A DNA stretch of 64,000 nt. It comes from an uncultured beta proteobacterium. GTDB lineage: Bacteria; Pseudomonadota; Gammaproteobacteria; Burkholderiales; SG8-41. Below, piece after piece: positions 2,635 to 35,117 of the stretch; the first letter of the stretch is position 1, and the number at the start of each line of letters is the position of its first letter. Made by a program: the position numbers and the translations under genes. The stretch lies in the NCBI GenBank assembly GCA_903893565.1, contig CAITMU010000121.1:19426-83425 (forward strand). The letters are read 5' to 3'. Below the pieces are notes generated by a model. That model was not told the DNA's origin. It saw only the letters and a program-made list of their open reading frames with translations, and searched no databases.

Positions 2635-3610
2635 GGTGAATGAGCTCGGTCATGAGTTGAGTTTGTGATTTAATGTAGTCGGAGAATTCTTGTATCGTAG
2701 AAGCCATGGGCTCAGCGCCTACGTTTTGCAATCGTCGCTGGGTTTCGGGCGCTTGCAATCCTTTGTTCATTTCAAAATTGAGTCGGCTCATGATATCGGG
2801 GCTGACCCCGCTCGGAGCGATTAACCCATACCACGTATTGAGTTCCCATCCAGGTAGTCCTGATTCGGCCGATGTGAGGACGTTGGGCAATTGTGGGATT
2901 CGTTCTTTTCTTAATATCGCTAAGGCTTTTAATTTTTTTTCACGTAATAGTCCCAGTGCGGCCGGCGGACCTATTGTCACCATATCGGTTTCCCCAGTGA
3001 TGAGAGAAAACATGGCGATACTGGTGCCTTTGTAGGGGATGTGGGTGATGTTAATCTTAGCCAGATACTTTAGCATTTCCCCAGCCAAGTGATTGGATGT
3101 GCCAACCCCACCTGAGCCAAAATTTAACTGACCTGGATTTTTTTTGGCCATCGCAATGAGTTCACGCAGGTTGTTGGCGGGTACGGAAGGATGTACGACC
3201 AGCAAAGAAGGGATGTTAGCCACCAAGGAAATGGCCCCTAAGTCTTTTAAATCATACCCGGGATTTTTGTAAAGTCCTGGGCTAATGGTAATGGAGGGAG
3301 AGCATAGGCCGATGGTATAACCATCGGCAGGCGCTCTTGACAATAATGCGTAGCCCACGTTGCCACCCGCACCAGGTTTGTAGTCGGGAATAATATTTTG
3401 TTTCAAACCGAGTTGTAAGAGTTCAGCCACCGTACGACCGAGCGCATCGGTTGCCCCGCCTGGCGGAAACGGTAAAATGAATCGAAGCGCTTTGGTGGGA
3501 TAGGCATGTAACGTTTGTGCCATTGCTTTGTCGGTTCCCCCTAAGTTATTGAGAATGAGACCCCAAAGGAAAAGTGTAAAAAAAAGGGGCCTAGGCCGGT
3601 ATCTATTCAT
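2612..3610 (-). CDS. Bug/TctC-family substrate-binding protein
   Basis: The track ORF is 2612-3727. I place the start at the internal Met (MNRYRPRPLFFTLFLWGLIL...), which gives a normal signal peptide followed by AYPTKALRFILPFPPGGATD. The 39 upstream codons are AT-rich and low complexity. Confidence 0.85.
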   Translation of the reverse strand: MNRYRPRPLFFTLFLWGLILNNLGGTDKAMAQTLHAYPTKALRFILPFPPGGATDALGRTVAELLQLGLKQNIIPDYKPGAGGNVGYALLSRAPADGYTIGLCSPSITISPGLYKNPGYDLKDLGAISLVANIPSLLVVHPSVPANNLRELIAMAKKNPGQLNFGSGGVGTSNHLAGEMLKYLAKINITHIPYKGTSIAMFSLITGETDMVTIGPPAALGLLREKKLKALAILRKERIPQLPNVLTSAESGLPGWELNTWYGLIAPSGVSPDIMSRLNFEMNKGLQAPETQRRLQNVGAEPMASTIQEFSDYIKSQTQLMTELIHHAGIKAD

Positions 3611-4302
3611 GAGGAAGAGAAATTCATTGATGAACACGAAAGAAAATATCGTTTTTAAAAATATCGCGTATTTAATTTTACTGCTAAAGCCGGGTGATCT
3701 ATTTTTTAGCCGATTTTGAAACATCAATGCGGCTTATTTTTTCGCTTTTATTATTATTGATTCCAAGCGCTATTGTAATGTAATCGAAGTCCACACTAAC
3801 GCTAAAACGTGCGGCAAGTGTCCCATGAAAGGTAGAATAAGTCTTTTTTTGATGCCTGTGTACGTTTACTCATAAATCGCAAGTGAAGGCTTAATAAAAT
3901 CAGTGAGTTAGTCAATGGTCGTCCACCCTACAGTAGAAGCGTAAGCCCTCATAAGTGGCAAGTTTCTTAGTCAATTACCCCATAAACTGCACTTTTCGCC
4001 TACTATTTTGTGCATTTGAATATTCTGAGATAGGCTTCTAAGAGTCATGAAAGCACAAGGATCCATAGGGCGCTCCTAAATATGACTTTGGTTTACCAAA
4101 AGAATTGGCTCGAACGATTGGGGGCTGCTACAAGTGGGATTGAAAATTACGAAAAACATTGGTTTAGGATTGATGACCCAAATGTAGGTGAATTTAGAAA
4201 AAGTTCATCTGGGTAGTGGTAAGCGCAACCTTGTTCCAGGGGGTGTCTATCGCTCTGAATATCAACTGACTTTGTCGCGGGAGTTAATTTAGGTGGAGAA
4301 TT

Positions 4303-4512
4303 ATGAGTGCTAAGTTCGCTTTGCATGGAGGCACTGCAATCAATTTATTAGTCCGTGATATGCCTAGGCTTTCCGTGGATATTGATATGACTGACTTGCC
4401 CATTGATTCTAGAGATGTGACTTTGAAAAATATTGGCCTAGCTTTAGGACGAATTAAGCAGGAGATCGAAAGAGCGCTTGGGGTCTTTATTGTGTATCAA
4501 GTTGAAGTTTGA
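4303..4512 (+). pseudogene. Truncated fragment of an AbiEii/AbiGii-type nucleotidyltransferase toxin
   Basis: The 69-aa ORF reads FALHGGTAINLLVRDMPRLSVDIDMTD, matching the N-terminal nucleotidyltransferase motif (hGGTAl...pRfSxDiDf) of AbiEii toxins. Those are normally about 280-300 aa; this one ends after about 70 aa. The sequence just upstream (..PGGVYRSEY..) is broken by stops. Confidence 0.55.
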
Positions 4513-4599
4513 GTGGCTCTCAGAGGCATTTTCCTTTCCCATCAAAAAAATGGGTAAATAGTGGAAAAAACGTGGAAATAGTGTGTAAAATGATTTCCT

Positions 4600-5004
4600 A
4601 TGAGAACCCAATTAAGTACATCAAAACCCCCTTTTTCTATCTTTAGCTCCATTCCCGTATCTGATGAGCTGGGCTTATTTAGGGGGAAAGGCTTACCAAA
4701 TTACAACCGAGTCAAAGATATTTTGGGGTACACGAAAGAAGATATTTCGATTGCCTCAGGCGTTCCATTTGGGTCGGTTCGTTTTGATAAGAAAATCCCG
4801 ATTGAGCTAACGCAGCGTATTACAGAGTGGGCGACTGCTATTGCCTTGGTGCATAGTTTTTTCAATGACGAAAACAAAACTATGCTTTGGTTTAAAGTTC
4901 CCAACCCCCTCTTGGGTGATGTGGCGCCGCGCGACATGATCAAGGTTGGACGCTTTAAAAAACTCTTTAAATTTATTCAAAGTGCTTTGGAAGAGAATCA
5001 ATAA
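4600..5004 (+). CDS. Xre/MbcA/ParS-like antitoxin (HTH plus DUF2384 toxin-binding domain)
   Basis: 134 aa. The C-terminal part MLWFKVPNPLLGDVAPRDMIKVGRFKKLFKFIQS fits the DUF2384 pattern (W...pnp.LgG..P.dll). It lies directly upstream of and abuts a RES-domain gene. Confidence 0.8.
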   Translation: MRTQLSTSKPPFSIFSSIPVSDELGLFRGKGLPNYNRVKDILGYTKEDISIASGVPFGSVRFDKKIPIELTQRITEWATAIALVHSFFNDENKTMLWFKVPNPLLGDVAPRDMIKVGRFKKLFKFIQSALEENQ

Positions 5005-5982
5005 TTGGCCATTCGCAAGCCAGCCCTACATCATCGGGGTCGACCCAAGCTTATTAAGAAGACGAAAAAGCTGACACCTGAAAAACGAGTAGAGCATCTA
5101 CTGGAAGAGGGCTCCCTTCAAAGCTTAATTGAGGGAAAAAAACTTAATCAAGCCTATATAAAGTATCAATGGGATTTTTATTCGGAGTTGGCCTACCAGC
5201 GAAGTTTGATCCAAGATCAGCTAATAGCGAGTCTACAAGAAAGTGCCATTGCTGGTTATCAGTTTGATGCTTGGCAACGGGTTACACGCTGGAAGTATTC
5301 TGGACATCCCTTTTCCACAGTAGGTAGCTTAGTGTCATGGGGTGGCAGATTTAATCTTGGCCAAGATATTTCTCCCATCGGGACCTTGAAAACATTTCAA
5401 GCCTTGTATTTGGCGCAAAGTCAGGCTACCGCGCTGGTGGAAGGCCTGGGAAGTGGAATGAGCAACTCCCCTTTGTCTATTGAGGAAATCGCTCTAGCCA
5501 ATAAAAGCTCTTTTGTATGCGTCTCGGTCTCCGGCGCCTTGGATCGCGTGATTGATTTGACGGATAAAGCCACCCTAGTCAAGTTTGCGAAATTAATTTC
5601 AAAATTTAAAGTGCCGCAATCTATATTAGATTCTGCCGCGCAGCTTAATATTCCGCTGCCTACTTTAATAAAAAGTCCGGGCCCTCTACTCAAGTCATTT
5701 TTAATTGAGAACTGGCGCAAGGAGCCTGCTCAATTTGACATACCGGCTAATGGGCAAATCTTTGGCCAGTTAGTTTATCTGGCCGGAATTGACGTTATCA
5801 TCTATCCATCAAGTAAGACTGGTGAGAAATGCTTCGCAATTTTTCCATCCAATTTTGATGGTAGAAATTCTTATTTGAGACTTGACGATGAGCCTCCCGA
5901 AAAATGGACTCCGAGATTCATTTCATCAGATAATTTCACGCTTTGTGAAAAAACTTCCGATGAGCTCAAATCGTTGGGCTAA
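5005..5982 (+). CDS. RES-domain toxin (NAD+-targeting MbcT/ParT-type family) with a long N-terminal extension
   Basis: Candidate RES residues are WGGRFN (Arg), ALYLAQSQATALVE (Glu) and IIYPSSK (Ser). The TTG start immediately follows the antitoxin TAA (TAATTG). Confidence 0.75.
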   Translation: MAIRKPALHHRGRPKLIKKTKKLTPEKRVEHLLEEGSLQSLIEGKKLNQAYIKYQWDFYSELAYQRSLIQDQLIASLQESAIAGYQFDAWQRVTRWKYSGHPFSTVGSLVSWGGRFNLGQDISPIGTLKTFQALYLAQSQATALVEGLGSGMSNSPLSIEEIALANKSSFVCVSVSGALDRVIDLTDKATLVKFAKLISKFKVPQSILDSAAQLNIPLPTLIKSPGPLLKSFLIENWRKEPAQFDIPANGQIFGQLVYLAGIDVIIYPSSKTGEKCFAIFPSNFDGRNSYLRLDDEPPEKWTPRFISSDNFTLCEKTSDELKSLG

Positions 5983-5996
5983 TTGGTTAAGAAGCG

Positions 5997-6373
5997 TTAT
6001 AGAGCGTGATTAATATATTCCAAGTAACTCATTACGGTATCGGTTTTTGACCAGCGCCCCATACTCATAATGATGGGTAGGCTCGCTCCCGGTATCACTA
6101 AATCTTGAGCATAGCCAACACGCGTTGAGTGGCCGCTGATTATGGTAATAAAAGATTCATCTAATTAGTAGCACCAGAGGCTACCTTCTTTAAGACCAAT
6201 GCTTTCGCCAAATGAAACAAGGCATTCGGTAAAGGAGCTGTGACTTGTTTCCCCAATGGCATTTTCTTCAACCTCTAAAACTATCAAAGTAATTTTTGTC
6301 CAAGCGCGCGCATCATCACCATTAAGAGTCTTAATAGAGTCTGATATTTTTTGGTAATCTCTTGTTTGGACAT
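5997..6373 (-). pseudogene. Tyrosine recombinase/integrase, C-terminal remnant
   Basis: Manual reverse translation gives ..FITIISGHSTRVGYAQDLVIPGASLPIIMSMGRWSKTDTVMSYLEYINHAL*. This has the H-x-x-R and terminal catalytic Tyr pattern of a tyrosine recombinase C-terminus. An in-frame stop lies just upstream (..SLWCY*LDES..) and there is no intact N-terminal part. Confidence 0.55.
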
Positions 6374-6399
6374 TTAACCGAGATTTTCCATTAGAAACG

Positions 6400-6778
6400 T
6401 CTAAGGGTCAAAGACGGGGGTAAAAGTGACCGGTTTTTCGAAGGTTTTTGACCTATCCCAAACCCCTTCAAACCAGGTTCTTTGCTTTTACGTCCATGAC
6501 CACATTAAGGTGATTTTTTCGACCGGCTTTGCTTATGTAAGCCGCCTTGGCGAAGAGCTTATACCTTAGCGTGTTAAAGTGTGTGTTGCATCTGTTTGGG
6601 TTGTATTTTTTCTACCGTGCTACGCAGGGCCGCTTGCCTAAATAAACTCATCTTTGGCGGCAATTGAATCGGCTTTTAAAGCCTCTTCAAACTTCAAGTG
6701 TTCCAGGATGCGTTTCATCAGGGCCATTCCGTCCCAAGGCGTGATCTTTTTGTCTGCAAAAGTAAGCTCGAAGTCCAT
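6400..6778 (-). mobile_element. Internally deleted DDE-transposase (IS4-superfamily / IS1380-like) remnant
   Basis: The reverse strand encodes MDFELTFADKKITPWDGMALMKRILEHLKFEEAL.., a transposase-type N-terminus, which ends after 46 aa. Further on, ..LRYKLFAKAAYISKAGRKNHLNVVMDVKAKN.. resembles a transposase C-terminal tail. The catalytic core is absent. The family assignment is tentative. Confidence 0.45.
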
Positions 6779-7033
6779 CAAACCCCTCGCGCTAAAAAAG
6801 TGAATGAATTAAAATGAACTCAACACATTAAAAACCAATGAAATCATACATTTTTTTTATTGGTTTCCATTAGGAATCGAATCAAATAAAAAATCTCGAT
6901 TGAATTGGTTATTAGTCCAGCTGGCTAAAGTATTTATTGTCAAGTTAAAGTGTTTGGAACACTGTATTTATAAGGCTCTGCGGGACTGGCAATTTATGGT
7001 GGATCAAATTGCTGTTTATGGGTAACCCACGGT

Positions 7034-8677
7034 ATGGCGTTGCCTCTAAGAGTGCGAGGCTCATGCACCGAGTTCATTGAGAGGGTATCTGTTTTGTTGA
7101 CTTTGGCTCCATCGTATAGCGTGTGGCGTATGTTCGAATCCGCAGTGGCGCAAGGGCCGCTGAAGCCGGCTTTGATTTTTGAGTCTAAGGCTTGGACCTA
7201 CCAAGCGCTTCATCAAGAAGCGAATGCGATCGCGGCGGCATTGGTGGCTCTAGGTATTAAAAAAGGCGATTGTGTGGCGATTTGGTTACCCAATGTGCCT
7301 TTTTGGATCACTTTGTTTTTAGCCTGTACAAAAATCGGCGCCCCAGTGTTGGCCTTGAATACTCGATTTAAATCGAAGGAAGTGGGCGATGTGCTCGCCA
7401 GAGCTGAGGCTAAGGTATTGGTTTATAGTCCTCATTTTTTGGGTATCGACTTTTCTGCGCTCATTAATGAAATAGATCCGGTGTGCCTTAAGGCTCTATC
7501 ACAGGTATTTGCTTGGAGCCCCGAGGCGTCCCCTCCGACCAAGGTAGCCGGTTTGGCTGTATGGGATGCTGCGAGGCTTTTGGAGTTTCATCCCTTTGTG
7601 ACCCCTGTCGATACGCCTGATAGCGCGTGTGTGATGTTTACCACTTCGGGGACCACCAGTCGGCCTAAGCTTGTCTTACACAGTCAAAGGAGCATTGCTC
7701 ATCACGCGCAAGATGTCGCGCGCGCGCTCGGTTATGAGGTTCCGGGTAGTGTGATTTTGGTGGTGACCCCGCTTTGTGGGGTGTCGGGCTTTGGCGTTCC
7801 GATGGCTTGTATAGCGGCCCAAGCGGTTTTTGTCTTGAGTGTTAGTTTTAATACTGAGCAAAGTCTTCACATCATTCAATCCCATCGGATCACCCATATC
7901 CATGCCAATCACGAGATCGTACGGCGTTGGCTGGATTACGAAGCAGGGCCCGTTGATTTTTCTTCTTTGAAAATGGTCAATTGCGGTTCGGGTATCGGCG
8001 CTTTGATCGAGCGCGCAAAGGCGCGAACACTTCCCCTCTTATCGATTTACGGGTCGAGTGAAGTGCAGGCGCGTTTTTCTTCTCAGCTTCATGCGCAAAA
8101 TAGCTCACAAGCACTGGAAGGCGGCGGCAGGCCTTTGTCGTCTTTGGCCCGAGTTCGAGTCGCTGATATTGAAAGCGGTGAGTCTCTAGGCCCTGAAGCG
8201 CGGGGCGAATTGCAGATCTGTGCGCCCAGTCAGCTAATGGGTTATTTTTCCGATAGTCAGGCGACCCAAAATGCCATAACCCATGATGGTTATGTGCGCA
8301 CCGGTGACTGTGGTTATATTCGTGAGGATGGCAGTTTTGTGTTGGAAGCCCGTATTGGGGATGTTTTAAAGCTTTCCGGTTTTATGGTCAGTCCTGCGGA
8401 AATAGAGTCATTTATTTTGGACTATGAGGGCGTCTTGCAGTGTCAAGTGGTGGGTAGGCCAACAGCGCGTGGCCTACGTGCGGTGGCTTTTGTAAAAACC
8501 CAATACGAGTTTCAAGAGTCGAATCTTCGTGACTATTGTCGAGCGCATATGGCAGCGTATAAAGTGCCTATCAGAATTATTCGTTTGGATGAATTTCCCG
8601 TCACTGCAGGGGTTAATTCACCAAAAATACAAAAAAATGCCTTACGTGAATTGGCTAAAACAATCAATATTGAGTAG
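7034..8677 (+). CDS. AMP-dependent acyl-CoA synthetase/ligase
   Basis: Carries the AMP-binding motif MFTTSGTTSRPK, later GYVRTGDCGY, and a C-terminal ..YKVPIRII.. region. The true start may be the internal Met at 7130 (MFESAVAQGP...). Confidence 0.85.
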   Translation: MALPLRVRGSCTEFIERVSVLLTLAPSYSVWRMFESAVAQGPLKPALIFESKAWTYQALHQEANAIAAALVALGIKKGDCVAIWLPNVPFWITLFLACTKIGAPVLALNTRFKSKEVGDVLARAEAKVLVYSPHFLGIDFSALINEIDPVCLKALSQVFAWSPEASPPTKVAGLAVWDAARLLEFHPFVTPVDTPDSACVMFTTSGTTSRPKLVLHSQRSIAHHAQDVARALGYEVPGSVILVVTPLCGVSGFGVPMACIAAQAVFVLSVSFNTEQSLHIIQSHRITHIHANHEIVRRWLDYEAGPVDFSSLKMVNCGSGIGALIERAKARTLPLLSIYGSSEVQARFSSQLHAQNSSQALEGGGRPLSSLARVRVADIESGESLGPEARGELQICAPSQLMGYFSDSQATQNAITHDGYVRTGDCGYIREDGSFVLEARIGDVLKLSGFMVSPAEIESFILDYEGVLQCQVVGRPTARGLRAVAFVKTQYEFQESNLRDYCRAHMAAYKVPIRIIRLDEFPVTAGVNSPKIQKNALRELAKTINIE

Positions 8678-8684
8678 ATAGAAA

Positions 8685-9677
8685 ATGAGATATCAAAACC
8701 GTTATTTTTGGTGCACTCTGGGGTTAATGGGTTTGTTGGGTAGTCGCACGGTTATGGCACAAGAAAAATCGCTCGCTGACACTTATCCGAGTAAGCCCAT
8801 TCACTTTATCGTGCCTTATTCTCCGGGAGGGCCCACCGACGTGTTAGCCCGGTTATTGGGGCAAAAAATGACAGAGCGCTGGGGACAACCCGTGGTGGTC
8901 GAAAACCGGGCCGGCGCCAATGGTGCGATTGGTGCTGAGTTGTTGGCAAAGTCGCCTAACGATGGCTCGGTTCTTTTTCTGGGTAATACGAGTATCCTGA
9001 CAATCAATCCGGTCATGTATAAAAAACTACCCTACGATGCCGAAAAGCAATTTCAACCGGTGAACTTAACGGTGGCAGCGCCGTTATTGCTAACGGTGCA
9101 TCCTTCCATTGGGGTTAAATCGGTGAAGGATATGATTCGTCTAGCGCAAAAACCAGGCTCCGCCTTGACCTTCGCGTCCTCGGGAACGGGGGGGGTGGCG
9201 CATTTGTCGGGGGAGTTAATGAAACTGTTAGCGCATATCGACCTCATTCATATCCCGTATAAAGGGGCAGGGCCTGCGACAGTGGACTTGATTGCGGGGC
9301 AAGTGGCGATGACCTTTACCAGTACGGTTTCTGTGATGAACCACGTCAAGGCGGGGCGTTTGCGCGGTATTGCGGTGACCACGCCTAAAAGAGCGCCTAG
9401 CTTACCTGAAGTGCCTGCAATCAGTGAGACCGTGCCTGGCTATGATGTGAGCCCTTGGTATGGGGTATTGGTGCCGGCATTAACGCCGATGGTCATTGTG
9501 AATAAAATTCATAATGAAGTGGCTAGAATTGTTAAAATTAGCGAAATAAATCAGCGATTGAGTGAAGAGGGGGGTACCGTGGTGAACGAGGGGCCGGAAG
9601 GCTTTGCTCGAATGATCACGGCAGAAAGATTAAAGTGGGCCCGTGTGGTTCAGAACGCTCAGATTCGAGGTGAATAA
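8685..9677 (+). CDS. Bug/TctC-family substrate-binding protein
   Basis: Signal peptide followed by TYPSKPIHFIVPYSPGGPTD. 330 aa. Confidence 0.9.
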   Translation: MRYQNRYFWCTLGLMGLLGSRTVMAQEKSLADTYPSKPIHFIVPYSPGGPTDVLARLLGQKMTERWGQPVVVENRAGANGAIGAELLAKSPNDGSVLFLGNTSILTINPVMYKKLPYDAEKQFQPVNLTVAAPLLLTVHPSIGVKSVKDMIRLAQKPGSALTFASSGTGGVAHLSGELMKLLAHIDLIHIPYKGAGPATVDLIAGQVAMTFTSTVSVMNHVKAGRLRGIAVTTPKRAPSLPEVPAISETVPGYDVSPWYGVLVPALTPMVIVNKIHNEVARIVKISEINQRLSEEGGTVVNEGPEGFARMITAERLKWARVVQNAQIRGE

Positions 9678-9684
9678 GTCAGGG

Positions 9685-10653
9685 ATGTTAAAAATGCATT
9701 ATGGTTGGGGTCTACTGTTCGGGTGGTGTGTGAGCGGTTTATTGCACGCGCAAAATTACCCACAAAATTACCCACAAAAGGGTGTGCGCTTAGTCATCCC
9801 ATTTACTGCCGGTGGGGCTGCGGACATTATTGGGCGTTTATTGGCCGCAGAGCTTTCGCAAAACCTGGGGCAAGCCGTGGTAGTCGATAATCGCGGCGGC
9901 GCAGGCACCGTCATTGGCACCGAGATGGTGGCGCGCGCGAGTCCGGACGGTTATAGCTTAGGTTTGATTACGCCCTCTTTTACCATTAATGGGGCGATAC
10001 GACGGCTGCCTTTTGATTCGATCAATGATTTTGCCCCGATTGCCTTGGTTGGTATTACCCCATTGATTCTGGTGACCCATCCGAGTCTGCCGGTGCATAC
10101 CGTGACAGACTTGATTCGCTTGGCGGGCCAACATCCGGGCGAGTTAGTGTACGCCTCCGCAGGCCCTGGTAGCCCTACCCATATGGGAATGGAATTATTA
10201 CGTTTTTCAGGTATACGTATGACTCATATCCCCTACAAGGGGGCGGCTCCGGCGTTGGTGGATCTGGTAGGCGGCCATGTACAGTTAATGCAAACGAGCA
10301 TCATCATCGCTAAGCCTTATATGAGTTCGATGAGACTTCGTCCCATTGCGGTGACCACGGCGCAACGGGCTAAAAATTTACCGCAAGTGCCGAGCATCGC
10401 CGAGACAATCCCAGGCTATGAAGTGCTCAATTGGTGGGGCGTGGTTGCGCCAGCCAAAACCCCGCCGGCCGTAGTCACTCGACTCAACACCGAAATTCGT
10501 CAAGTGATGAATAGGGCCTCCAGTAAAGAAAAGCTTTCCGTTGAAGGGGCAGAATCTGCCAATGGTTCACCGGTGGAGTTCGAGCAGATGCTAAAAAAAG
10601 AAATCAGCCAATGGCGACGTTTGGGTGAATCCATTCAGCTTAAGCTCGATTAG
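9685..10653 (+). CDS. Bug/TctC-family substrate-binding protein
   Basis: The track ORF starts at 9643. The Met at 9685 (MLKMHYGWGLLFGWCVSGLLHA) gives a normal signal peptide before QNYPQNYPQKGVRLVIPFTAGGAAD. Start uncertain. Confidence 0.85.
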   Translation: MLKMHYGWGLLFGWCVSGLLHAQNYPQNYPQKGVRLVIPFTAGGAADIIGRLLAAELSQNLGQAVVVDNRGGAGTVIGTEMVARASPDGYSLGLITPSFTINGAIRRLPFDSINDFAPIALVGITPLILVTHPSLPVHTVTDLIRLAGQHPGELVYASAGPGSPTHMGMELLRFSGIRMTHIPYKGAAPALVDLVGGHVQLMQTSIIIAKPYMSSMRLRPIAVTTAQRAKNLPQVPSIAETIPGYEVLNWWGVVAPAKTPPAVVTRLNTEIRQVMNRASSKEKLSVEGAESANGSPVEFEQMLKKEISQWRRLGESIQLKLD

Positions 10654-10682
10654 TCAATTAAATACTTATTGGAGCGATCGAT

Positions 10683-12788
10683 ATGAGTCTAGACACCTTA
10701 TTAAACCCACGTTCAATTGCCATTGTGGGGGCTACACAGGATGCACGCCGTGCGGGTGGCCAACCTTTTCATAGCTTGACGCAATTGGGTTATGGCGGAG
10801 AGGTTTTTGCGGTCAATCCCCGTTATCAACAAATCGATGGCCACCCTTGTTTTGCTCATGTGGATGCCTTGCCCTCGCCAGTGGATTTGGCCGTGATTGC
10901 GGTGCCTGCCACTGAGGTGGCTGCCACGGTGGAAGCGTGTGGACGAAAGGGCATTCGATACGCACTGATACTCAGTGCGGGGTTTCGTGAAATAGGGGAG
11001 CGGGGTTTAGAGTTGGAGGCGCAATTACTCAGTGCCCTACAGCGAAGCGGTGTGAAAGCGGTCGGTCCTAACTGCATTGGTATGATGAACGTACCTAAAA
11101 AAGTCTTTGCTGGCTTTGGCGCCGCCTTTCGTAAATACGATTGGCGTGGGGGACCGATAGCGATGATTTCACAAAGTGGTGGTTTTGCCTATTCCATCAT
11201 GACCTTTTGCGATGAGGCCGGTATCGGATTTGATCATATGATTTCCACGGGCAATGAGAGTAGTTTGGGTACGCTGGATTTCATTGAGCATTTTTTAGAA
11301 GATGAGGCGATTCGTTTGATTGCGGTTTATATGGAAGGCATTCAAGATGGAAAGCGTTTGCGTGCCTTAGGTCGTAGAGCCTTAGAAGTGGGTAAGCCCA
11401 TTGCCGTTTGGAAAGTGGGCAATACCAGTACGGGAAGACGTGCTGCGGTCTCGCACACGGCGAACTTAACCGAGGAATATGACTACTACCGTGATGCCTT
11501 TGCCGAGGGAGGGTTTGTTCAGATTCGTGAAATTTATGATTTGATCGATTGTGCCAGAGTGTTTCGTTCTCCTAAGAGACCTCGGGGCAATCGAGTCGCG
11601 GTGGTGACCACTTCGGGTGGGGCGGGGGTATTGTTGACCGACGCTTGTGAGCAGGCCGGACTCGATCTGCCACTGCTAAACGAGAGCACCGTTAAGACCT
11701 TGCATACGGTCTTGCCCCACTTCGCATCAATCAGAAACCCCATTGATGTGACGGCTGCGATTGCGCAAAAACGATCCGAATTCGGTCAAGCCACGCAAGC
11801 CGTGCTCGATGATCCTAATGTGGATATGCTCATCGTGCGTTCTTATCCCGGTCGAGATGGCGCGTTGTGGGCGGAGGATTTTGTGGCTGCCGCCAATCAA
11901 ACCGATAAACCGATTCTAGTGAGTCTGACCGGCACACCGAGTGAATCCAGTGCGTGGTTGCCCGCTTTGGAGGCGGCCGGTATCGGGTGCTTTGAAGCGC
12001 CCAGCCGTTTGGTCTATGCCGCAGCGTGCTTAAATCGGTTTACGCGGCAACGAGAACTTTTAGCCAGTGCGTCTAGCGTGGCGGCTGTATCGTTCGAATC
12101 GGTGGCCTGGCCGCAGCAATCGAGTTGGGATGAAGTGAGTGCGAAACAATTTTTAAAGCGTTATCACATTCCCATTCCCGCGGCAACCTTCATTGCTTTG
12201 GGCGAAGAGGCGAGTCTTGTCAATCAAGCGATTGATTTTCCGGTGGTATTAAAAGTAGTCAGTCCTGATTTACCCCATAAGAGCGAGGCCGGAGGGGTTC
12301 GAGTGGGTATTCAGGATCGGGAGAGCTTAATCAAAGCCATTGAACAGATGAAATTAGCAACCCAACGCTTTAAACCCGGTCTTTGCATTCGGGGTTGGTT
12401 AATCGAATCGATGGTCAAAGGGGCGGAATTTATTGTCGGTGCTTTAAACAATGCGAGTTTTGGTCCTGTCATCATGGTCGGCATGGGGGGAATTTACGCG
12501 GAGCTTTTCCAAGACGTCGTCAGACGCTATGCCCCGTTTGACGCTGAGGTGGCTAAATCGATGATTCTGTCTTTGAAAGGGGCTAAAACCTTACAAGGAT
12601 ATCGCGGCCAGCCGTTATGTGATGTTGAGGCCTTCGCTCAAGTGTTAAGTCAGATCTCTTACATCGTGATGCAACACCGAGACGAGTTAGCGGAGCTAGA
12701 AATTAATCCCTTGATGGTGCGCGCTGTCGGTCAAGGGGTGGTGGCCGTGGATGCGGTGATTCAGCCCCGGTCTGCCGGTGCTCATTAG
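10683..12788 (+). CDS. ADP-forming (NDP-forming) acyl-CoA synthetase, fused alpha/beta type
   Basis: 701 aa. The N-terminal CoA-binding domain begins PRSIAIVGATQD. It is followed by a succinyl-CoA-synthetase-like ligase domain and a C-terminal ATP-grasp domain (..PVVLKVVSPDLPHKSEAGGVRVGI..). Confidence 0.85.
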   Translation: MSLDTLLNPRSIAIVGATQDARRAGGQPFHSLTQLGYGGEVFAVNPRYQQIDGHPCFAHVDALPSPVDLAVIAVPATEVAATVEACGRKGIRYALILSAGFREIGERGLELEAQLLSALQRSGVKAVGPNCIGMMNVPKKVFAGFGAAFRKYDWRGGPIAMISQSGGFAYSIMTFCDEAGIGFDHMISTGNESSLGTLDFIEHFLEDEAIRLIAVYMEGIQDGKRLRALGRRALEVGKPIAVWKVGNTSTGRRAAVSHTANLTEEYDYYRDAFAEGGFVQIREIYDLIDCARVFRSPKRPRGNRVAVVTTSGGAGVLLTDACEQAGLDLPLLNESTVKTLHTVLPHFASIRNPIDVTAAIAQKRSEFGQATQAVLDDPNVDMLIVRSYPGRDGALWAEDFVAAANQTDKPILVSLTGTPSESSAWLPALEAAGIGCFEAPSRLVYAAACLNRFTRQRELLASASSVAAVSFESVAWPQQSSWDEVSAKQFLKRYHIPIPAATFIALGEEASLVNQAIDFPVVLKVVSPDLPHKSEAGGVRVGIQDRESLIKAIEQMKLATQRFKPGLCIRGWLIESMVKGAEFIVGALNNASFGPVIMVGMGGIYAELFQDVVRRYAPFDAEVAKSMILSLKGAKTLQGYRGQPLCDVEAFAQVLSQISYIVMQHRDELAELEINPLMVRAVGQGVVAVDAVIQPRSAGAH

Positions 12789-12791
12789 CAA

Positions 12792-13922
12792 TCAGTCGAT
12801 GTTGTTGGAGACTTGTTTGATGAGTTGACCGTAGGTGGTAAAGTCACGTGCAATGCGCGCACTAAAGAGCTCGGGGGATAGTGCAATAAACTCCATGCCC
12901 CGGGCACTCCACAGTGTTTTTAACTCCGTGCTCGCAAAGCTTTGCGCTAAGGCCATATGCAGCCGATAAACAATCCCTTTGGGCAAATGCGCGGGCCCCA
13001 GTAATCCCTGCCAGCCATCCATTTCATAACCCGGTAGACCACTTTCTGCGATGGTAGGGATGAGCGGTAAGTTCGTCATACGATGGTGGCCCGTGACCCC
13101 TAAGGCTTTTAATTTACCTTGTTGGATGGGGGGTATTAAAAAGGCGGGATTATTCCACATCATATCCACCCGACCGCTGACTAAGTCGGCAATGGCCGTA
13201 GAGCCACCGCCTCGATAGGGCACGTGTAATAGTTTGATATGGGCCATAGAGGCAAACAAGGCTCCGGCAATGTGATAGGCACTGCCCACGCCATTAGATC
13301 CATAGGAGAGCCCCATGGATTTTTTGTGGGCTAAGAGTATCAACTCACGGGCATTACGAGCCGGTAATAAGGGGTGTGCGGCCCACAGAAAGGCGAAATC
13401 TCCGATAGGGGAAATAGCGGTGAAGTCTTTGGTCGGATTGAAGTTAACCTTTTGTAGATAAGGGGTGGCGGTCAGTGCAGAGCCCGGGGCTGCTAAAAGG
13501 GTATAGCCATCGGGAGCACTTTTCATCACCATTTCCGCTGCAATTACTCCGGTGGCACCTGGGTGAATATCCACAATGCATGGCTGACCCAAAACATCGG
13601 AGAGCTTTTGTGCCACTGCGCGGGTGTTTAAGTCCATGGAGCTGCCGGAGGCATAGCCGTGAATGATACGAATCGGTTTGATGGGGTAGGTACTGGAATC
13701 GTTGATCCGATTGGGTTCGGGGGGGGTGAGGCCAGAGGGAAAGCCTTGTGAGTGGGCGCCTGCCCCCCAGATTGCGCCTAAGAGGAGACAGAGGAGACGG
13801 AAAAAGGGTTGTTGGTGTTTTTTGAAAAAGGGGTTGACTCCCTTTGGCGTGAGGGTTTGAATCCCTTTGATGGTAGGCGCGAGCGCCATCAACAAAGTCA
13901 TGGGGAATAATAAGGGGCGCAT
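12792..13922 (-). CDS. Bug/TctC-family substrate-binding protein with an unusual N-terminal extension
   Basis: The core TYPIKPIRIIHGYASGSS.. and the overall length fit the Bug family. The N-terminus has two hydrophobic segments. No in-frame ATG, GTG or TTG lies between Met12 and the second hydrophobic segment. Confidence 0.8.
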   Translation of the reverse strand: MRPLLFPMTLLMALAPTIKGIQTLTPKGVNPFFKKHQQPFFRLLCLLLGAIWGAGAHSQGFPSGLTPPEPNRINDSSTYPIKPIRIIHGYASGSSMDLNTRAVAQKLSDVLGQPCIVDIHPGATGVIAAEMVMKSAPDGYTLLAAPGSALTATPYLQKVNFNPTKDFTAISPIGDFAFLWAAHPLLPARNARELILLAHKKSMGLSYGSNGVGSAYHIAGALFASMAHIKLLHVPYRGGGSTAIADLVSGRVDMMWNNPAFLIPPIQQGKLKALGVTGHHRMTNLPLIPTIAESGLPGYEMDGWQGLLGPAHLPKGIVYRLHMALAQSFASTELKTLWSARGMEFIALSPELFSARIARDFTTYGQLIKQVSNNID

Positions 13923-14428: not shown

Positions 14429-14977
14429 ATGTCAGAAATAGAAAAAAAAGTTCGATTGATTGTGCCGGAGGCGCCCCCTCCGGCCGTAGCCAAAATCAGT
14501 GAGCAGCGTGATTTTAAAACAGGTGGCATACGGCTGGGAGTATTGGATAACAGCAAGAGTAACGCCGATCATTTGCTTCAATTTATTATCGAAGGGGTGA
14601 AGGCGCATGTGAAGGTGGCCTCAGTGGTCTCACTGCGTAAACCTTCGCCCTCGGTGCCTGCTGAAAAAGCGCTGCTTGACGAATTATCGGAGACCACCGA
14701 TTGCGTCATCAGCGCGATGGCCGATTGAGGCTCCTGCACGTCGTGGAGTGTCCACGACATGTCAGAATTAAGAAAGCGCGGTTTGGTCACGGCCGTCATT
14801 TGTACTGATCCGTTTCTGAAATTGGGTAAAGCACAGTCGCGTGTTTTTGGGGTTCCGGAATTACCCTTGATTGTGATTCCTCATCCGTTAGGGGGTATTT
14901 CCCTTGAAAAAGTAGAGGGACGGGCTGAGGTGGCGATTCCTGAATTTGTCAAATTGATCAAGGAGCACATCAAGTGA
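14429..14977 (+). CDS. UGSC-motif selenoprotein (candidate), in-frame UGA = Sec at 14726-14728; function unknown
   Basis: Track ORFs 14390-14728 and 14759-14977 are in the same frame. The 30 nt between them (GSCTSWSVHD) contain no stop. The joined product reads ..CVISAMAD-U-GSCTSWSVHDMSELRKRGLV... GGAG lies 6 nt before the ATG at 14429, and no SD precedes 14759. A hairpin follows the UGA. Confidence 0.7.
14736..14762 (+). promoter_or_regulatory. SECIS-like stem-loop downstream of the in-frame UGA
   Basis: A perfect 8-bp stem, GTCGTGGA (14740-14747) / TCCACGAC (14751-14758), with loop GUG. The stem begins 12 nt after the UGA. It can extend at the base (A-U, C-G, G-U) across one mismatch. Confidence 0.55.
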
Positions 14978-16089
14978 GTGAGTTGTCGCAACTATTATTG
15001 GATCCTGAAAATAGCCTTGAGACCAAAGACGATTTTTTTGAGATCAATGCCCTTTACCTAGAAAAAGGTTGGGGGGATGGATTGCCTTTGATCCCACCCA
15101 CTGAACAAAGGGTGGCGGCGATGCTGGAGTATTGTGATCGCCCTTGGAATGAACCGATTGCTAAGATCGCGCCGCGTTACGGTGAGGCAACACCCCTGCG
15201 ATTGGCGGCTAATGCGGTGATGGCCGGATGTAAGCCCGAGTATTTTCCTTTGATTGTGTTGGCTGTTGAAGCCATGTGTGAGGAGTCATTTAACCTTTAT
15301 GGTATTCAGGCCACAACCCATATCTGTGCGCCCCTGGTGATCGTCAATGGGCCCGTGGTTAAGCAGTTGGGAATGAATAGCGGTCATAATGCGTTTGGAC
15401 CAGGAACCCACAGTAATGCCACGATTGGTCGGGCCATTCGTTTAATTTTGCTCAATATTGGTGGTGCAGTGCCTGGGCTGGGCGACATGTCGACCTTTGG
15501 TGGCCCCAATAAGTATTCATTCTGTGTGGCTGAAAATGAAGAGGCTAATCCGTGGGAGCCTTTGCATGTGGAGAGGGGCTTTCCGAAAGACTCGAGCTGC
15601 GTCACGGTCATCGGTGCTGAATGTCCTCATAACGTGAACGATCATGAGAGTATTTCAGGGCAGGGGATTTTGAAAACGATTGCCGGTTCCATGATTAGCA
15701 CGGGGGCTAATGATATTTATTATCCCGATGCGACCCCATTGATTGTGATGGGGCCTGAGCATGCGGCCAGTATTGCCAATGATGGATTTAGTAAAAAATC
15801 CGTTAAACAGTTTTTAACCGATCATGCCAAAATCCCCTTGGGTACTTTTTCTACCGAAAACATTGAACGTCGCTTTAGGGTGGCCTTTGCTTCTGTGTTT
15901 AAAAATGCGGGTTTAGATGAACCGGTGCCCATGATTCATCATGCCGATAACATTGTGATTGCTGTGATCGGTGGAGCGGGCAAGCACTCGGCTGTTTTTC
16001 CAACCTTTGGCGCTACCAAAGCGGTGACCCGTGCGCTTAAGACGAAGAATGGGGATTACGTGAAATTTATTGAGAAAATAAAGAAATAG
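14974..16089 (+). CDS. Conserved-looking hypothetical protein, translationally coupled to the UGSC gene
   Basis: 371-aa ORF. Its GTG start overlaps the upstream stop (aaGTGAgtg). Non-repetitive, globular-looking sequence (GWGDGLPLIPPTEQRV.., AANAVMAGCKPEYFP.., NATIGRAIRLILLNIGGAVPG..). I do not recognise a characterised family. Confidence 0.75.
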   Translation: MSELSQLLLDPENSLETKDDFFEINALYLEKGWGDGLPLIPPTEQRVAAMLEYCDRPWNEPIAKIAPRYGEATPLRLAANAVMAGCKPEYFPLIVLAVEAMCEESFNLYGIQATTHICAPLVIVNGPVVKQLGMNSGHNAFGPGTHSNATIGRAIRLILLNIGGAVPGLGDMSTFGGPNKYSFCVAENEEANPWEPLHVERGFPKDSSCVTVIGAECPHNVNDHESISGQGILKTIAGSMISTGANDIYYPDATPLIVMGPEHAASIANDGFSKKSVKQFLTDHAKIPLGTFSTENIERRFRVAFASVFKNAGLDEPVPMIHHADNIVIAVIGGAGKHSAVFPTFGATKAVTRALKTKNGDYVKFIEKIKK

Positions 16090-16276: not shown

Positions 16277-16702
16277 ATGGAACAACTCGAACGTCCGTTG
16301 CCGGCGCCGCTGGCCCCAGAGGCGAAGCCGTACTGGGAAGGGTTAAAGCAAGACAAGCTCATGCTTCCACAATGTAAGGACTGTGGGAAAGCGCATTTTT
16401 ACCCGCGCATTCTCTGCCCGCACTGTCACTCCCGCAATCTCACGTGGGTCGAGGCGAGCGGTCGGGGCAAGTTATTTGCCTTTGAAATCCTTTACCGCTC
16501 ATTTAACCCCGCGGTGAAGACACCTCTGCCTTATGTGCTAGCGATGATCGATCTGGAAGAAGGCCCTCGCATGTTGTCTAACCTCATCAACATCAAGCCC
16601 GATCCGGCCTTAATCCACTGCGACATGCCAGTGAATGCCGTCTTCGTAAAGCAAAATGACAACTTCACCCTTCCGTTCTTCCAACCTGCCGAGGGGAAAT
16701 AA
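16277..16702 (+). CDS. DUF35 Zn-ribbon/OB-fold protein (thiolase-associated)
   Basis: Contains CKDCGKAHFYPRILCPHCHS (a 4-Cys zinc ribbon) followed by an OB-fold-sized C-terminus. A strong SD (AAGGAGG) precedes it. It lies immediately upstream of a thiolase-like gene, which is the usual pairing. Confidence 0.85.
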   Translation: MEQLERPLPAPLAPEAKPYWEGLKQDKLMLPQCKDCGKAHFYPRILCPHCHSRNLTWVEASGRGKLFAFEILYRSFNPAVKTPLPYVLAMIDLEEGPRMLSNLINIKPDPALIHCDMPVNAVFVKQNDNFTLPFFQPAEGK

Positions 16703-16704
16703 TC

Positions 16705-17868
16705 ATGGCCCAACACGACTTTATGCGCGAGCTTTCGAACACGGCTTGTATCGTCGGCGCAGCCGAGAGCGACGAAATGGGTATTTTGCCGCACAAGAGC
16801 CAGATGGCCTTGCACTTGGAATCGATATCCAACGCGGTTGCGGATGCCGGACTCAAGGTCAGTGATGTGGACGGCATTTTCACGGCCGGTGCGCATTCAC
16901 CGGCCCTGATCGCCGAAGCGCTGGGCATCACGCCGCGCTACGTCGACGGCACGAGTGTGGGCGGTTGCTCCTTCATCATCATGGTGGAGCACGCGATAGC
17001 GGCGCTGCATCATCACCTGTGCGATGTCGCGGTCATTACTCATGGCGAAAGCGGCCGCTCGCAGGTGGGCGTAACGCGTGTGCGCGACACCAGCATCGCC
17101 GGCTGTTACGAAATCCCCTATGGCTTTGGCGCCCCGCCGACCTGGTTCGGCCTCATCACCACGCGGCATATGCACGAATACGGCACCACGCTCGAACAAT
17201 GGGCGCAGGTGGCGGTGTCTACGCGTCAGTGGGCAGCCCTGAATCCGAAGGCCCTATACCGCGATCCTATGACGATCGACCAGGTGCTCAAGGCCAAGAT
17301 GATCGCTTACCCGTTCACCGTGCTGAACATCTGCCTCGTCACCGATGCCGGGGGCGCAATAGTGCTCACGCGCGCGGACCGGGCGCGTGACTGCGCCAAG
17401 AAACCCGTCTACGTTCGTGGCACCGGCGAGGCGACTGAGCACGTGTCCGTGACGCAGATGAAAGGCCTGCCGTTGAGCAAGGCCACGCGCATGTCCAGCG
17501 AGCGCGCCTTCAAGATGGCCGGCGTTAGCCACGGCGACTTCGATCACCTCATGCTGTATGACGCGTTTACCTCCGGCCCTCCGATCATGCTCGAATCGAT
17601 GGGCTTCGCCAAGCCCGGTGAGGGCGTCTCGTTCTTCGAAAACGGCAAGTCAACGCCGGGCGGATCACTGCCGATCAACACCAACGGTGGTGGACTGTCT
17701 TATACGCATACGGGGATGTATGGCATGTTCCCGTTGATTGAGGCCACGCGCCAGTTGCGCGGCGAGTGTGGCGCACGGCAGGTGCCCAATGTGAAGCTGT
17801 CGCTGGTCAATGGCATGGGCGGCATGCTATCGGCAGCGGGTACTGCGGTCTTGTCGAACGAAAAATAA
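16705..17868 (+). CDS. Thiolase-like protein (SCP-x / DUF35-partner type)
   Basis: 387 aa. Carries ..INTNGGGLSYTHTGMYG.. near the C-terminus and has a thiolase-fold length. Starts 3 nt after the DUF35 stop. Confidence 0.85.
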   Translation: MAQHDFMRELSNTACIVGAAESDEMGILPHKSQMALHLESISNAVADAGLKVSDVDGIFTAGAHSPALIAEALGITPRYVDGTSVGGCSFIIMVEHAIAALHHHLCDVAVITHGESGRSQVGVTRVRDTSIAGCYEIPYGFGAPPTWFGLITTRHMHEYGTTLEQWAQVAVSTRQWAALNPKALYRDPMTIDQVLKAKMIAYPFTVLNICLVTDAGGAIVLTRADRARDCAKKPVYVRGTGEATEHVSVTQMKGLPLSKATRMSSERAFKMAGVSHGDFDHLMLYDAFTSGPPIMLESMGFAKPGEGVSFFENGKSTPGGSLPINTNGGGLSYTHTGMYGMFPLIEATRQLRGECGARQVPNVKLSLVNGMGGMLSAAGTAVLSNEK

Positions 17869-18330: not shown

Positions 18331-19281
18331 ATGGTTTCCCGACGTCTGCCCCCCCTTAACTCATTGAAAGCGTTCGAAGCGACGGCTCGACACCTCAGTG
18401 TTAAGAAAGCGGCATTAGAGTTAAATGTCACCCCCGCTGCAGTCAGTCACCAATTGCGCATTCTGGAGGAGTATTTAGGCGTTGAGCTCTTTCACCGCTT
18501 TAATCGCTCGCTCGAACTGACCCAAGTGGCCAAGGGTGGGCTAGCGAAGCTAGCGCAAGGATTTGACTGCCTGATGGAGTCGGTCGATTTGTTACGCGCC
18601 CAACAAGGGGGGGGCTCTTTGACCGTGAGTGCTGCGCCGTCATTTGCCTCTCGCTGGTTGATGCCCCGATTGCATCGGTTTATTGCAGCGCATCCGGAGA
18701 TTGATGTAAAAATTTCAGCTCGTATGCGCCGCGTCAGTGTCGATGGCAAGGGGGATGTAGCCGAAAGGGCCACGGTGGAGACTTGGCTAGCGGATTCGGA
18801 TGTGGCTATCCTTTATGGCTTAGGCAATATTTTAGGTTTCAATGTGGAGCGATTGCTTGAACTGACTATCACCCCTATTTGCAGTCCAAAACTGCTCACA
18901 GGAGAGTTTCCCTTACGTGAACCTTCCGATTTAAAGCATCATTTACTGCTGCATGATGATACCGGGCAGCTTTATGACAATGAAGCCTTTTGGACCGTTT
19001 GGCTGGCGGCGGCGGGGGTTACGGATGTGGATGTGAACAAGGGGCCTCATTTTAGCCATGCTGTGCTTGCTTTTGAGGCCGCCATTGATTCGGTGGGGAT
19101 ATTGGCCAGTATGCCGGTGTTGGCCGGTGAAGAAATTGCTTCAGGTCGTTTGGTAAAACCCTTTGATTTATCGGTGAAATTGCCTGACAGTTATTATATG
19201 GTTTCTGCCGAACATTCCGAGCAACGTCCGGCAGTGGTGGCTTTTTTACAATGGTTACGAGAAGAGGCTGCCCGTATTTAG
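18331..19281 (+). CDS. LysR-family transcriptional regulator (GcvA-like)
   Basis: N-terminal HTH region LNSLKAFEATARHLSVKKAALELNVTPAAVSHQLRILEEYLGVELFHR. 316 aa. Confidence 0.9.
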   Translation: MVSRRLPPLNSLKAFEATARHLSVKKAALELNVTPAAVSHQLRILEEYLGVELFHRFNRSLELTQVAKGGLAKLAQGFDCLMESVDLLRAQQGGGSLTVSAAPSFASRWLMPRLHRFIAAHPEIDVKISARMRRVSVDGKGDVAERATVETWLADSDVAILYGLGNILGFNVERLLELTITPICSPKLLTGEFPLREPSDLKHHLLLHDDTGQLYDNEAFWTVWLAAAGVTDVDVNKGPHFSHAVLAFEAAIDSVGILASMPVLAGEEIASGRLVKPFDLSVKLPDSYYMVSAEHSEQRPAVVAFLQWLREEAARI

Positions 19282-34585: not shown

Positions 34586-35117
34586 TTTTACTCCTGACAA
34601 GTGGAATTGGGACTGCTAACAGCCGATGTAAAGCGTGAAGCGAGGACATACAGAAATAGAGACAGAACAAACAATAAACGCGGGAAAATCATCAAAGCCA
34701 TCACTGCCTTCCCGTTTTTAGGCTCAGGGGTAGCGGGACGCTTTAATTTTTTTCTGTTTTTTTGGCCATTGAATCTGCCGATTAAGGCAGGGGAATGGGA
34801 AAAAAGCATAATTTCCTAAGTTAACTGATCGGCTTAGCCACTGTCAAGTGCGCACTCATCTTCGTTGTCCTAACGGGCTTAAATCGAGTCCCGGAGCGTT
34901 CACGCCCCATTTTTGAAGGGTGGGGGTTGGCAGGGGCTGCGAGTTTTCCCGCCTCACGTGAGGTTTCACACGAATTTCACTATTTTGGGTAAACTCGGGC
35001 TTCAGGGAGCTTGGTTTAAGTATCATAAATCGGTAACACCGCTCATAACGAGGTGCCGCCAGATCTCTGAAGCCCATTTTTTACTTTTTAAGCCCCTCAA
35101 TCCGTGAGTCCTATCCT

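Follow-up and report, generated by a model that had tools for sequence, protein, structure and literature searches.

UGSC-family selenoproteins and a protein of unnamed family form a near-obligate gene pair with a candidate redox function

Introduction

An uncultured beta proteobacterium of the order Burkholderiales (lineage SG8-41) carries, on contig CAITMU010000121.1 of assembly GCA_903893565.1, a gene for a selenoprotein of the UGSC family that is followed directly by a gene for a 371-aa protein of unnamed family, hereafter the partner. We analyzed the 64,000-nt stretch of this contig from position 19,426 to 83,425 of the forward strand (the window), and coordinates below are positions within it unless another locus is named. 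The locus raises the question of whether the two genes belong together and, if so, what reaction their products might carry out.

UGSC proteins rank with the most abundant selenoproteins of aquatic metagenomes and came first among the families in several non-marine samples taken during Global Ocean Sampling (GOS) (PMC2398784). Reviews of 2022 and 2026 assign them neither a function nor a partner, the more recent one still listing UGSC as a family of unknown function (PMC13188914).

The selenoprotein gene overlaps the partner gene

The UGSC gene, the upstream half of the module, spans 14429..14977 on the + strand, with an ATG at 14429, a TGA stop at 14975-14977, and 182 codons including the one for selenocysteine (Sec). 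The open reading frame (ORF) of the partner follows at 14974..16089 (+) and begins with GTG. At the junction, the upstream frame reads ATC AAG TGA and the partner frame reads GTG AGT GAG, so that the UGSC stop and the partner start share a true 4-nt overlap (GTGA, 14974..14977, +), and the reading of a 371-aa, GTG-initiated ORF overlapping the UGSC stop in the initial annotation is exact in both the ORF listing and the sequence. A consensus Shine-Dalgarno sequence for the partner, AAGGAG, can be read within the UGSC coding sequence at 14960..14965 (+), 8 nt before the GTG at 14974. Among homologs, an ATGA or GTGA overlap recurs at the equivalent junction in approximately 24 loci of an 80-locus survey (described below). 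The overlap, the ribosome-binding site, and this recurrence together support well both the start codon of the partner and its translational coupling to the UGSC gene; the two had previously been described as a co-translated unit, and we retain the coupling but not the word "co-translation".

UGSC and partner genes are linked in both directions

We surveyed the pairing from both sides. On the partner side, we examined the best 80 of 596 confirmed relatives, one genome per species, using hidden Markov models (HMMs) built here and translating TGA as a residue. A same-strand UGSC gene stands beside the partner in 75 of these 80 genome loci, at a distance of ≤1.5 kb in all 75 and mostly within ≤260 nt or fused. 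The order is UGSC then partner in approximately 53 loci and partner then UGSC in approximately 22, and approximately 14 are in-frame fusions. Linked loci were found in Beta-, Alpha-, and Gammaproteobacteria, Chloroflexota, Methylomirabilota, Actinomycetota, Bacillota, and archaea. Five loci lack UGSC. In two of these (L045 and L065), the match to the partner falls at a contig end or close to one, so their upstream sequence is missing; the other three (L057, L058, and L061) are true orphans within ±6 kb.

In the reverse direction, we searched metagenome contigs with a DNA pattern encoding D-U-G-S-C-T-S-W and obtained 80 UGSC loci, 79 with a match to the UGSC HMM. Among the 37 testable loci, defined as those flanked on each side by 500 nt or more, the partner adjoins the Sec-type UGSC gene in 34; in the other three it lies past a 475-nt gap, lies 3.4 kb away, or is absent. 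The initial annotation had made its proposal depend on homologs being syntenic with UGSC genes in other genomes, and the counts from both directions bear this out. Same-strand adjacency or fusion of UGSC and partner is thus observed in the window and throughout the family, and the linkage is near-obligate in both directions.

The surroundings of the pair differ wholly between loci, with a catechol dioxygenase gene in L001, a position between recN and fur in L004-6, and a region of CoA-ligase, TctC, and thiolase genes in the window, which marks the two genes out as a self-contained module. Because the adjacency recurs in both test directions across many phyla, the pairing is more than chance. 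Overlaps of 4 nt are common in operons and between unrelated neighboring bacterial genes, and the window adjacency could on that ground be read as incidental packing of two independent proteins; this is contradicted by the two-way linkage across phyla, the occurrence of both gene orders, the differing surroundings, the frequent fusions, and the compact model predicted for one of them, and we give it almost no credence.

The upstream gene encodes a UGSC selenoprotein

The UGSC gene contains one in-frame TGA, at 14726..14728 (+), which would encode Sec at residue 100 and places it in the translated context ...CVISAMAD-U-GSCTSWSVHD..., in frame within the Pfam and NCBIfam matches. For scoring against HMMs, U was written as C in the query. 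The product matches the Pfam "UGSC family" (PF24696) with E 1.3e-40 and 139.7 bits against a cut-off of 25, and the NCBIfam "UGSC family (seleno)protein" (NF041046) with 126.3 bits against a cut-off of 125. Judged by its sequence, the upstream gene is a genuine UGSC selenoprotein gene and belongs to a known family whose function is unknown.

A candidate selenocysteine insertion sequence (SECIS) hairpin lies after the Sec TGA at 14734..14765 (+), with an upper stem at 14740-14747/14751-14758 (GUCGUGGA/UCCACGAC in the window) and the loop AGU. Its predicted minimum free energy is -17.3 kcal/mol, with a z-score of -2.43 relative to shuffled sequences. The pairs of the 8-bp upper stem are retained in 73-82% of 253 unique TGA-GG...TGY sites, and compensatory variants occur among homologs, such as GACGUGG...CCACGUC. 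The gene combines the family motif, an in-frame TGA, and a hairpin that could act as a bacterial SECIS.

Part of the UGSC protein resembles GrdB, with TIGR01917 positions 333-406 aligning to UGSC residues 86-165 in a local, sub-threshold match (E 1.1e-4). It is not a member of the GrdB/PrdB families, as its full scores are 21.3 bits against a threshold of 602.2 for TIGR01917 and 14.3 against 65.45 for TIGR01918. No match was found between UGSC and PDB sequences. In the model of a natural UGSC-partner fusion (P0125, described below), the UGSC domain is predicted to be an alternating beta-alpha structure of five repeats, with the C/U-x-x-C motif at the start of the helix that follows strand 3. 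Foldseek searches with this fusion returned generic flavodoxin-like matches to the UGSC half only (MdaB, flavorubredoxin, NQO1, and PTS IIB), and thioredoxins were absent among the top 50 matches. The thioredoxin fold proposed for UGSC in 2008 (PMC2398784) does not fit this model, which is flavodoxin-like.

The partner belongs to a large family without a named domain

An exhaustive search of representatives identified 5,223 partner-family clusters at 50% identity with E ≤ 1e-3, of which 1,429 had E ≤ 1e-30, and a word-indexed search found at least 7,967 relatives with E ≤ 1e-3 among the 8,000 candidates scored. All names that homologs of the partner carry at source are "hypothetical protein", including those given by RefSeq/PGAP on plasmids of cultured organisms. 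The closest partner homologs come from metagenome-assembled genomes of Burkholderiales/Betaproteobacteria.

The 371-aa sequence has no match in Pfam or NCBIfam, searches of all 72 members of an alignment of the family (A1) against Pfam at E ≤ 1 returned scattered noise only, and sequence and profile searches of PDB returned nothing. AlphaFold2 with A1 as input predicts a single-chain alpha/beta structure with a predicted local distance difference test score (pLDDT) of 94.9 and a predicted template modeling score (pTM) of 0.93. Foldseek found no match with E < 1e-3 for this model in PDB. We conclude that the predicted partner fold has no solved relative, and the earlier statement that the protein could not be placed in any characterized family stands after the Pfam, NCBIfam, PDB sequence and profile, and Foldseek searches, none of which gave a significant match.

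The best sub-significant Foldseek matches were to class I fumarate hydratase, followed by cyanuric acid hydrolase, RidA/YjgF, chorismatase, and MmgE/PrpD. The top match, 6uqn_B, had E 3.4e-3, a probability of 0.44, and a template modeling (TM) score of 0.22, and the Methanocaldococcus jannaschii alpha subunit 7xky_A had E 1.1e-2. The similarity to class I (Fe-S) fumarate hydratase is weak and extends over roughly the full length of the partner. Class I fumarate hydratase holds its [4Fe-4S] cluster with three Cys ligands. We rejected assignment of the partner to this enzyme or to the Fe-S hydro-lyases on the basis of TM scores of 0.16-0.28, a root-mean-square deviation of 17-19 Å, and the presence of only two conserved Cys, C86 and C184.

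The conserved blocks of the partner are DGLPxxPPT (35-43), ANAVMAGCxPEY (78-90), QxTT (T115), VNGP (G126, P127), FGPGxxANATIGRAxRL (in which N148 and R153 are invariant), AENE (E187), PW (193-194), and GG (333-334). The residues D35, T115, N148, R153, E187, and C86 vary little or not at all, as would be expected for an active site. The best-conserved Cys, C86 (codon at 15229..15231, +), is Cys in 116 of 121 homologs and Ala in the other five; in the model, it occupies the loop joining helix 74-83 to helix 88-101, at the N-terminus of the latter. C184, within KYSFCVAENE, is Cys in 101/121. The three motifs quoted in the initial annotation are all present and fall within the most conserved blocks of the 72-sequence alignment. 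Of the Cys it singled out as conserved-looking, the one in AGCKPEY (C86) is so, whereas those in THICAPL (C118, Cys in 45/121) and AECPHN (C217, 14/121) are not, and its list omitted C184.

One published description probably concerns the same family. In a small number of aquatic organisms, Zhang and Gladyshev (2008) saw a "UGSC/Unknown_1" fusion, and they described Unknown_1 as a conserved domain of unknown function with a conserved Cys that also occurs as a separate protein (PMC2398784). By this description, Unknown_1 is probably the partner family; the partner motifs were not found in the searchable supplements of that paper, whose alignment (Fig. S1A) is an image. The paper reports the fusion; the near-obligate gene pair, the reductase fusions, and the structure are not in it. 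Given its size, the partner family merits a domain model of its own.

Natural fusions point to a physical complex

By Pfam, P0125, P0131, P0136, and P0149 (each approximately 555 aa) consist of UGSC followed by the partner, and P0123 consists of the partner followed by UGSC, ending just before Sec. P0122 and P0128 combine the post-Sec half of UGSC with the partner and are Sec-type fusions truncated at the TGA by gene callers. A Sec-type fusion also occurs in the cultured Robertmurraya sp. 2P01SA.

In modeling, the fusion P0125, which is 47% identical to the window partner, stands in for the window pair. AlphaFold2 with a 90-sequence alignment (A2) predicts its structure with pLDDT 94.6 and pTM 0.94, and confidence is low only at the linker (approximately residues 181-200). 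A pTM of 0.94 for a two-domain chain of 560 residues suggests a confidently placed interface, and the fusion is predicted to fold as one compact unit. The natural fusions and the P0125 model together suggest that UGSC and the partner may form a physical complex in the organism of the window.

Two further proteins, P0164 and P0168, are tandem partner-partner chains of 717-741 aa, and both halves of P0164 retain the MAGC and GRA motifs.

A proposed selenium-dependent reductase

What might such a complex do? Clues come from redox modules that join the pair in some lineages. In P0162, the partner is fused to a low-molecular-weight thioredoxin reductase (Pyr_redox_2, E 6e-41, with a CAVC motif), and in P0214, a ferredoxin:thioredoxin reductase catalytic domain (PF02943, E 2e-21, CPC...CPC...CHC) is fused to the partner; a Sec-type UGSC gene lies upstream of both, directly so for P0162. 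In addition, six loci (L029, L047, L049, L054, L055, and L078) have a thioredoxin-reductase-like gene located 41-110 nt upstream of UGSC. A shorter partner paralog follows the partner in most of these six loci and in several others. The operon of L209 likewise encodes a reductase-like protein.

The Sec codon itself provides a second clue. At the UGSC site, 73 of the 75 linked genome loci have TGA and two (L031, from Sphingomonas, and L083) have TGY, encoding Cys, counts that are to be read with the fact that the 80 surveyed loci are those closest to a Sec-linked query. In GOS data, Sec and Cys forms numbered 255:21 for UGSC, compared to 235:110 for PrdB and 321:7,880 for "Trx-like 1" (PMC2398784). 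By its ratio, UGSC stands nearer to PrdB than to the Trx-like family. Such a strong preference for Sec would fit selenium-specific chemistry.

Taken together, we consider it probable that UGSC and the partner form a two-subunit or fused selenium-dependent reductase in which the partner is the substrate-binding catalytic subunit. The initial annotation had suggested an undescribed selenium-dependent redox enzyme; the reductase fusions and adjacency back the redox part of that suggestion, and "undescribed" is somewhat too strong in view of the 2008 report of what is probably this fusion. The UGSC subunit would be a small flavodoxin-like domain carrying Sec-Gly-Ser-Cys at a helix start, GrdB/PrdB-like around Sec, that docks on the partner. 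The partner would provide a conserved polar pocket (D35, N80, C86, T115, N148, R153, C184, and E187). The selenol could act on the bound substrate by direct attack, in the manner of PrdB, or it could relay electrons to C86/C184 of the partner, and either route would leave UGSC with an Se-S bond between Sec100 and Cys103. A thioredoxin-type system could then re-reduce this bond, and in some lineages this role would fall to a dedicated thioredoxin-reductase-like or ferredoxin:thioredoxin-reductase-like enzyme that the operon encodes or that forms one chain with the partner. The catalytic role of the partner and the reaction chemistry are our interpretation, and the suggestion that a small organic acid serves as substrate, one whose reducible bond lies beside the carboxyl group, is speculative.

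In seven alphaproteobacterial loci (L047, L048, L049, L054, L055, L059, and L078), UGSC comes first, followed by the partner and then by a shorter partner paralog of approximately 270 aa that keeps most of the active-site residues, and a thioredoxin-reductase-like gene lies directly upstream in five of them (L047, L049, L054, L055, and L078). This layout suggests a heteromeric catalytic core.

Several observations weigh against a reductase. Dedicated reductases are found in only approximately 10% of loci. Four of the 14 full-length Cys-type fusions (P0163, P0149, P0136, and P0269) have neither Cys nor Sec at the UGSC site, as in the sequences ADIGAAMSW and GWSGVYTIW. C86 is replaced by Ala in 5 of 121 high-scoring homologs, the fusion P0237 has Ile at this position and retains UxxC/CxxC, and several lower-scoring, paralog-like partner copies have Ala86 beside a Sec-type UGSC. 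The partner may therefore have a chemistry of its own that needs no redox step. The similarity of UGSC to GrdB covers a short stretch and, at 21 bits compared to 602, falls well short of the family threshold, and no conserved third gene or transporter that would point to a substrate emerged from all-against-all clustering of the neighbors in the 80 loci. Redox function, electron donors, residue roles, and substrate are all what we infer from computation only, and the models were judged by pLDDT and pTM; in the proposed complex, Sec would face the partner pocket. Because each of the two sites is lost separately, the UGSC site and C86 are not strictly interdependent, and the partner pocket is the more constant element: all of the conserved partner residues are kept in the four fusions without Cys or Sec. 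These four lineages are possibly redox-dead or mechanistically different.

These losses bear most directly on the idea that the partner works by itself as a non-redox enzyme, such as an isomerase, hydratase, or hydrolase of a carboxylate or CoA-linked metabolite, with UGSC in a structural or regulatory role such as a redox switch. The four fusions among 14 that lack Cys and Sec in UGSC while keeping D35, N80, C86, T115, N148, R153, and E187 speak for it. So do the weak best fold matches of the partner, which are all carboxylate-handling non-redox enzymes, and the frequent presence nearby of genes for organic-acid or CoA metabolism (CoA transferases, enoyl-CoA hydratases, MmgE/PrpD, TctC and tripartite ATP-independent periplasmic (TRAP) transporters, and the thiolase pair of the window). 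However, those fold matches are insignificant (E ≥ 3e-3, TM ≤ 0.28), and the neighbor families are heavily expanded in these genomes anyway. Sec is kept in 73 of 75 loci, and such a costly recoded residue argues for a catalytic role; fusion or adjacency to two different disulfide-reductase modules is likewise hard to square with a non-redox enzyme. On balance, we regard this idea as unlikely.

The reductase modules also bear on whether the pair handles selenium or sulfur itself, in which case UGSC would carry a persulfide or perselenide and the partner would be a transferase, a lyase, or a detoxifying enzyme. A U-x-x-C motif and conserved Cys residues are also typical of sulfur and selenium relay proteins, and the C-terminal part of P0139, one of the homologs, gives a weak, below-threshold NifU-like match (E 0.0085). 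Against this, genes for selD, cysteine desulfurases, rhodaneses, and Fe-S assembly are not recurrent neighbors in the 80 loci, and the reductase fusions fit a reductase of the turnover type better than trafficking. Cys-type modules in haloarchaea, which are not known to use selenium, count against it as well. We therefore consider trafficking to be very improbable, and a selenium-dependent reductase remains our preferred explanation.

Work on UGSC in isolation probably had little chance of success from the outset, given its near-obligate partner and, in some lineages, a dedicated thioredoxin-type reductase. We regard the lead as real and fairly important; it is computational and partly anticipated in the literature.

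Comparison with known selenoenzymes

The closest parallels are protein B of glycine/sarcosine/betaine reductase and D-proline reductase. In the pairs PrdB/PrdA, GrdB/GrdE, GrdF/GrdG, and GrdH/GrdI, as in the UGSC module, a small U-x-x-C selenoprotein is encoded beside a larger, substrate-specific subunit. The GrdB/PrdB selenoprotein works with this adjacent subunit and attacks the carbon next to a carboxyl group. The thioredoxin system regenerates glycine reductase, dithiols regenerate D-proline reductase, and the fusions to thioredoxin-reductase-like and ferredoxin:thioredoxin-reductase-like modules offer a parallel here. UGSC also resembles GrdB locally around Sec and strongly prefers Sec over Cys. 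One report (PMC10838667) links GrdB-like genes to reductive defluorination of fluoroacetate.

The differences are substantial. UGSC scores far below the Grd/Prd thresholds (21 compared to 602 bits and 14 compared to 65), and the partner has no detectable similarity to any Pfam family. No genes of the grdA/grdC/grdD or prd type are among the recurrent neighbors in the 80 loci. The hosts of UGSC modules are mostly aerobic soil, freshwater, and marine bacteria together with haloarchaea rather than amino-acid fermenters.

We also considered, and rejected, a place for the partner among pyruvoyl subunits of the GrdE/PrdA type. The partner and 72 homologs had no Pfam match at E ≤ 0.1-1, the families at issue being PF09338, which we take to be that of GrdE/PrdA, and PF07355, presumably that of GrdB. 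C86, examined as the possible pyruvoyl site, is predicted to lie in a loop between two helices of a confidently folded single chain. Cys118, in THICAPL, was rejected as a self-cleavage site of the PrdA/GrdE type, as it is Cys in only 45/121 homologs and the protein has no Pfam match.

A second parallel is with thioredoxin-dependent reductases that have dedicated or fused redox modules (such as MsrA/B-Trx fusions, ArsC, and peroxiredoxin-AhpF), which likewise couple a catalytic subunit having conserved Cys to a small CxxC/UxxC protein; some lineages add a flavoprotein of the thioredoxin-reductase type, encoded in the same operon or part of the same chain. The UGSC module has no sequence or fold relationship to these, and its Sec:Cys ratio is far above that of thioredoxin-like families.

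The broadest claim that these comparisons allow is a new class of selenoenzyme in which, as in PrdB, selenium would mediate the reductive cleavage of a carbon-heteroatom bond, here in archaea and aerobic bacteria and with a catalytic subunit whose fold has no solved relative. We put this forward tentatively and think it somewhat doubtful as stated; if true, it would explain what a selenoprotein that is among the most abundant in metagenomes from freshwater, soil, and ocean does.

Genomic neighborhood and other carriers

Downstream of the partner, the window encodes a DUF35/ChsH2-type zinc-ribbon OB protein (16277-16702, +; 187 nt after the partner) and a thiolase-like protein of the SCP-x type (16705-17868, +), both assigned by Pfam/NCBIfam. 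A LysR regulator is encoded nearby (18331-19281). The DUF35/thiolase pair also occurs in the near-identical contigs L007/L008, is absent in L001 and L004-6, and is not recurrent in the 80 loci; it is local context and not a conserved part of the module. Its layout is that of BbsAB or Ltp2/ChsH2. Across the 80 loci, the commonest neighbors are TctC (18 loci) and enoyl-CoA hydratase, luciferase-like, short-chain dehydrogenase/reductase, and CoA transferase genes (8-9 loci each), all from expanded families. Scans for promoters and terminators around the operon gave counts no better than shuffled sequence, and a search of the window for Sec machinery yielded a tRNA-Pro and no further Rfam match.

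Upstream of the module, the region 1618-13922 contains at least six TctC/Bug receptor genes among genes for an AMP-forming ligase (7034-8677) and an ADP-forming acyl-CoA synthetase (10683-12788), a layout typical of organic-acid catabolic regions in Burkholderiales. A second 371-aa ORF in this region (2612-3727, -) was considered as a paralog of the partner and proved to encode an unrelated TctC receptor.

In two other loci (L022, 3013-3864, and L029, 5039-5917), a gene of approximately 285 aa lies between UGSC and the partner. The L029 copy matches DUF6282 (PF19799, E 6e-64) and has HxH-type motifs, which give it the look of a metal-dependent hydrolase.

Cultured organisms carry the family as well. 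On plasmid 2 of Halalkalicoccus jeotgali B3 (L214; NC_014299.1, 77197-79896), a 341-aa partner paralog, a Cys-type UGSC (YGDCGSCSSW), and the partner follow one another in this order, and WP_008415592.1 and WP_008415593.1 make up a natural Cys-type pair; PGAP names only the UGSC gene, and the neighbors are CoA transferase, RraA-family, and TRAP transporter genes. Plasmid-borne partner homologs were found in cultured Paracoccus versutus (strain DSM 17099), Variovorax sp. SRS16, Vibrio europaeus, and Sporomusa termitida, where the partner alone was looked at.

Elsewhere in the window, a 134-aa ORF without a Pfam match immediately precedes a RES-domain protein (5005-5982) at 4600-5982 (+), a layout of the Xre/RES toxin-antitoxin type. 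Two aconitase A paralogs (31907-34600, -, and 44723-47416, -), each 897 aa with the domains Aconitase and Aconitase_C, lie approximately 10 kb apart and are 60% identical to each other.

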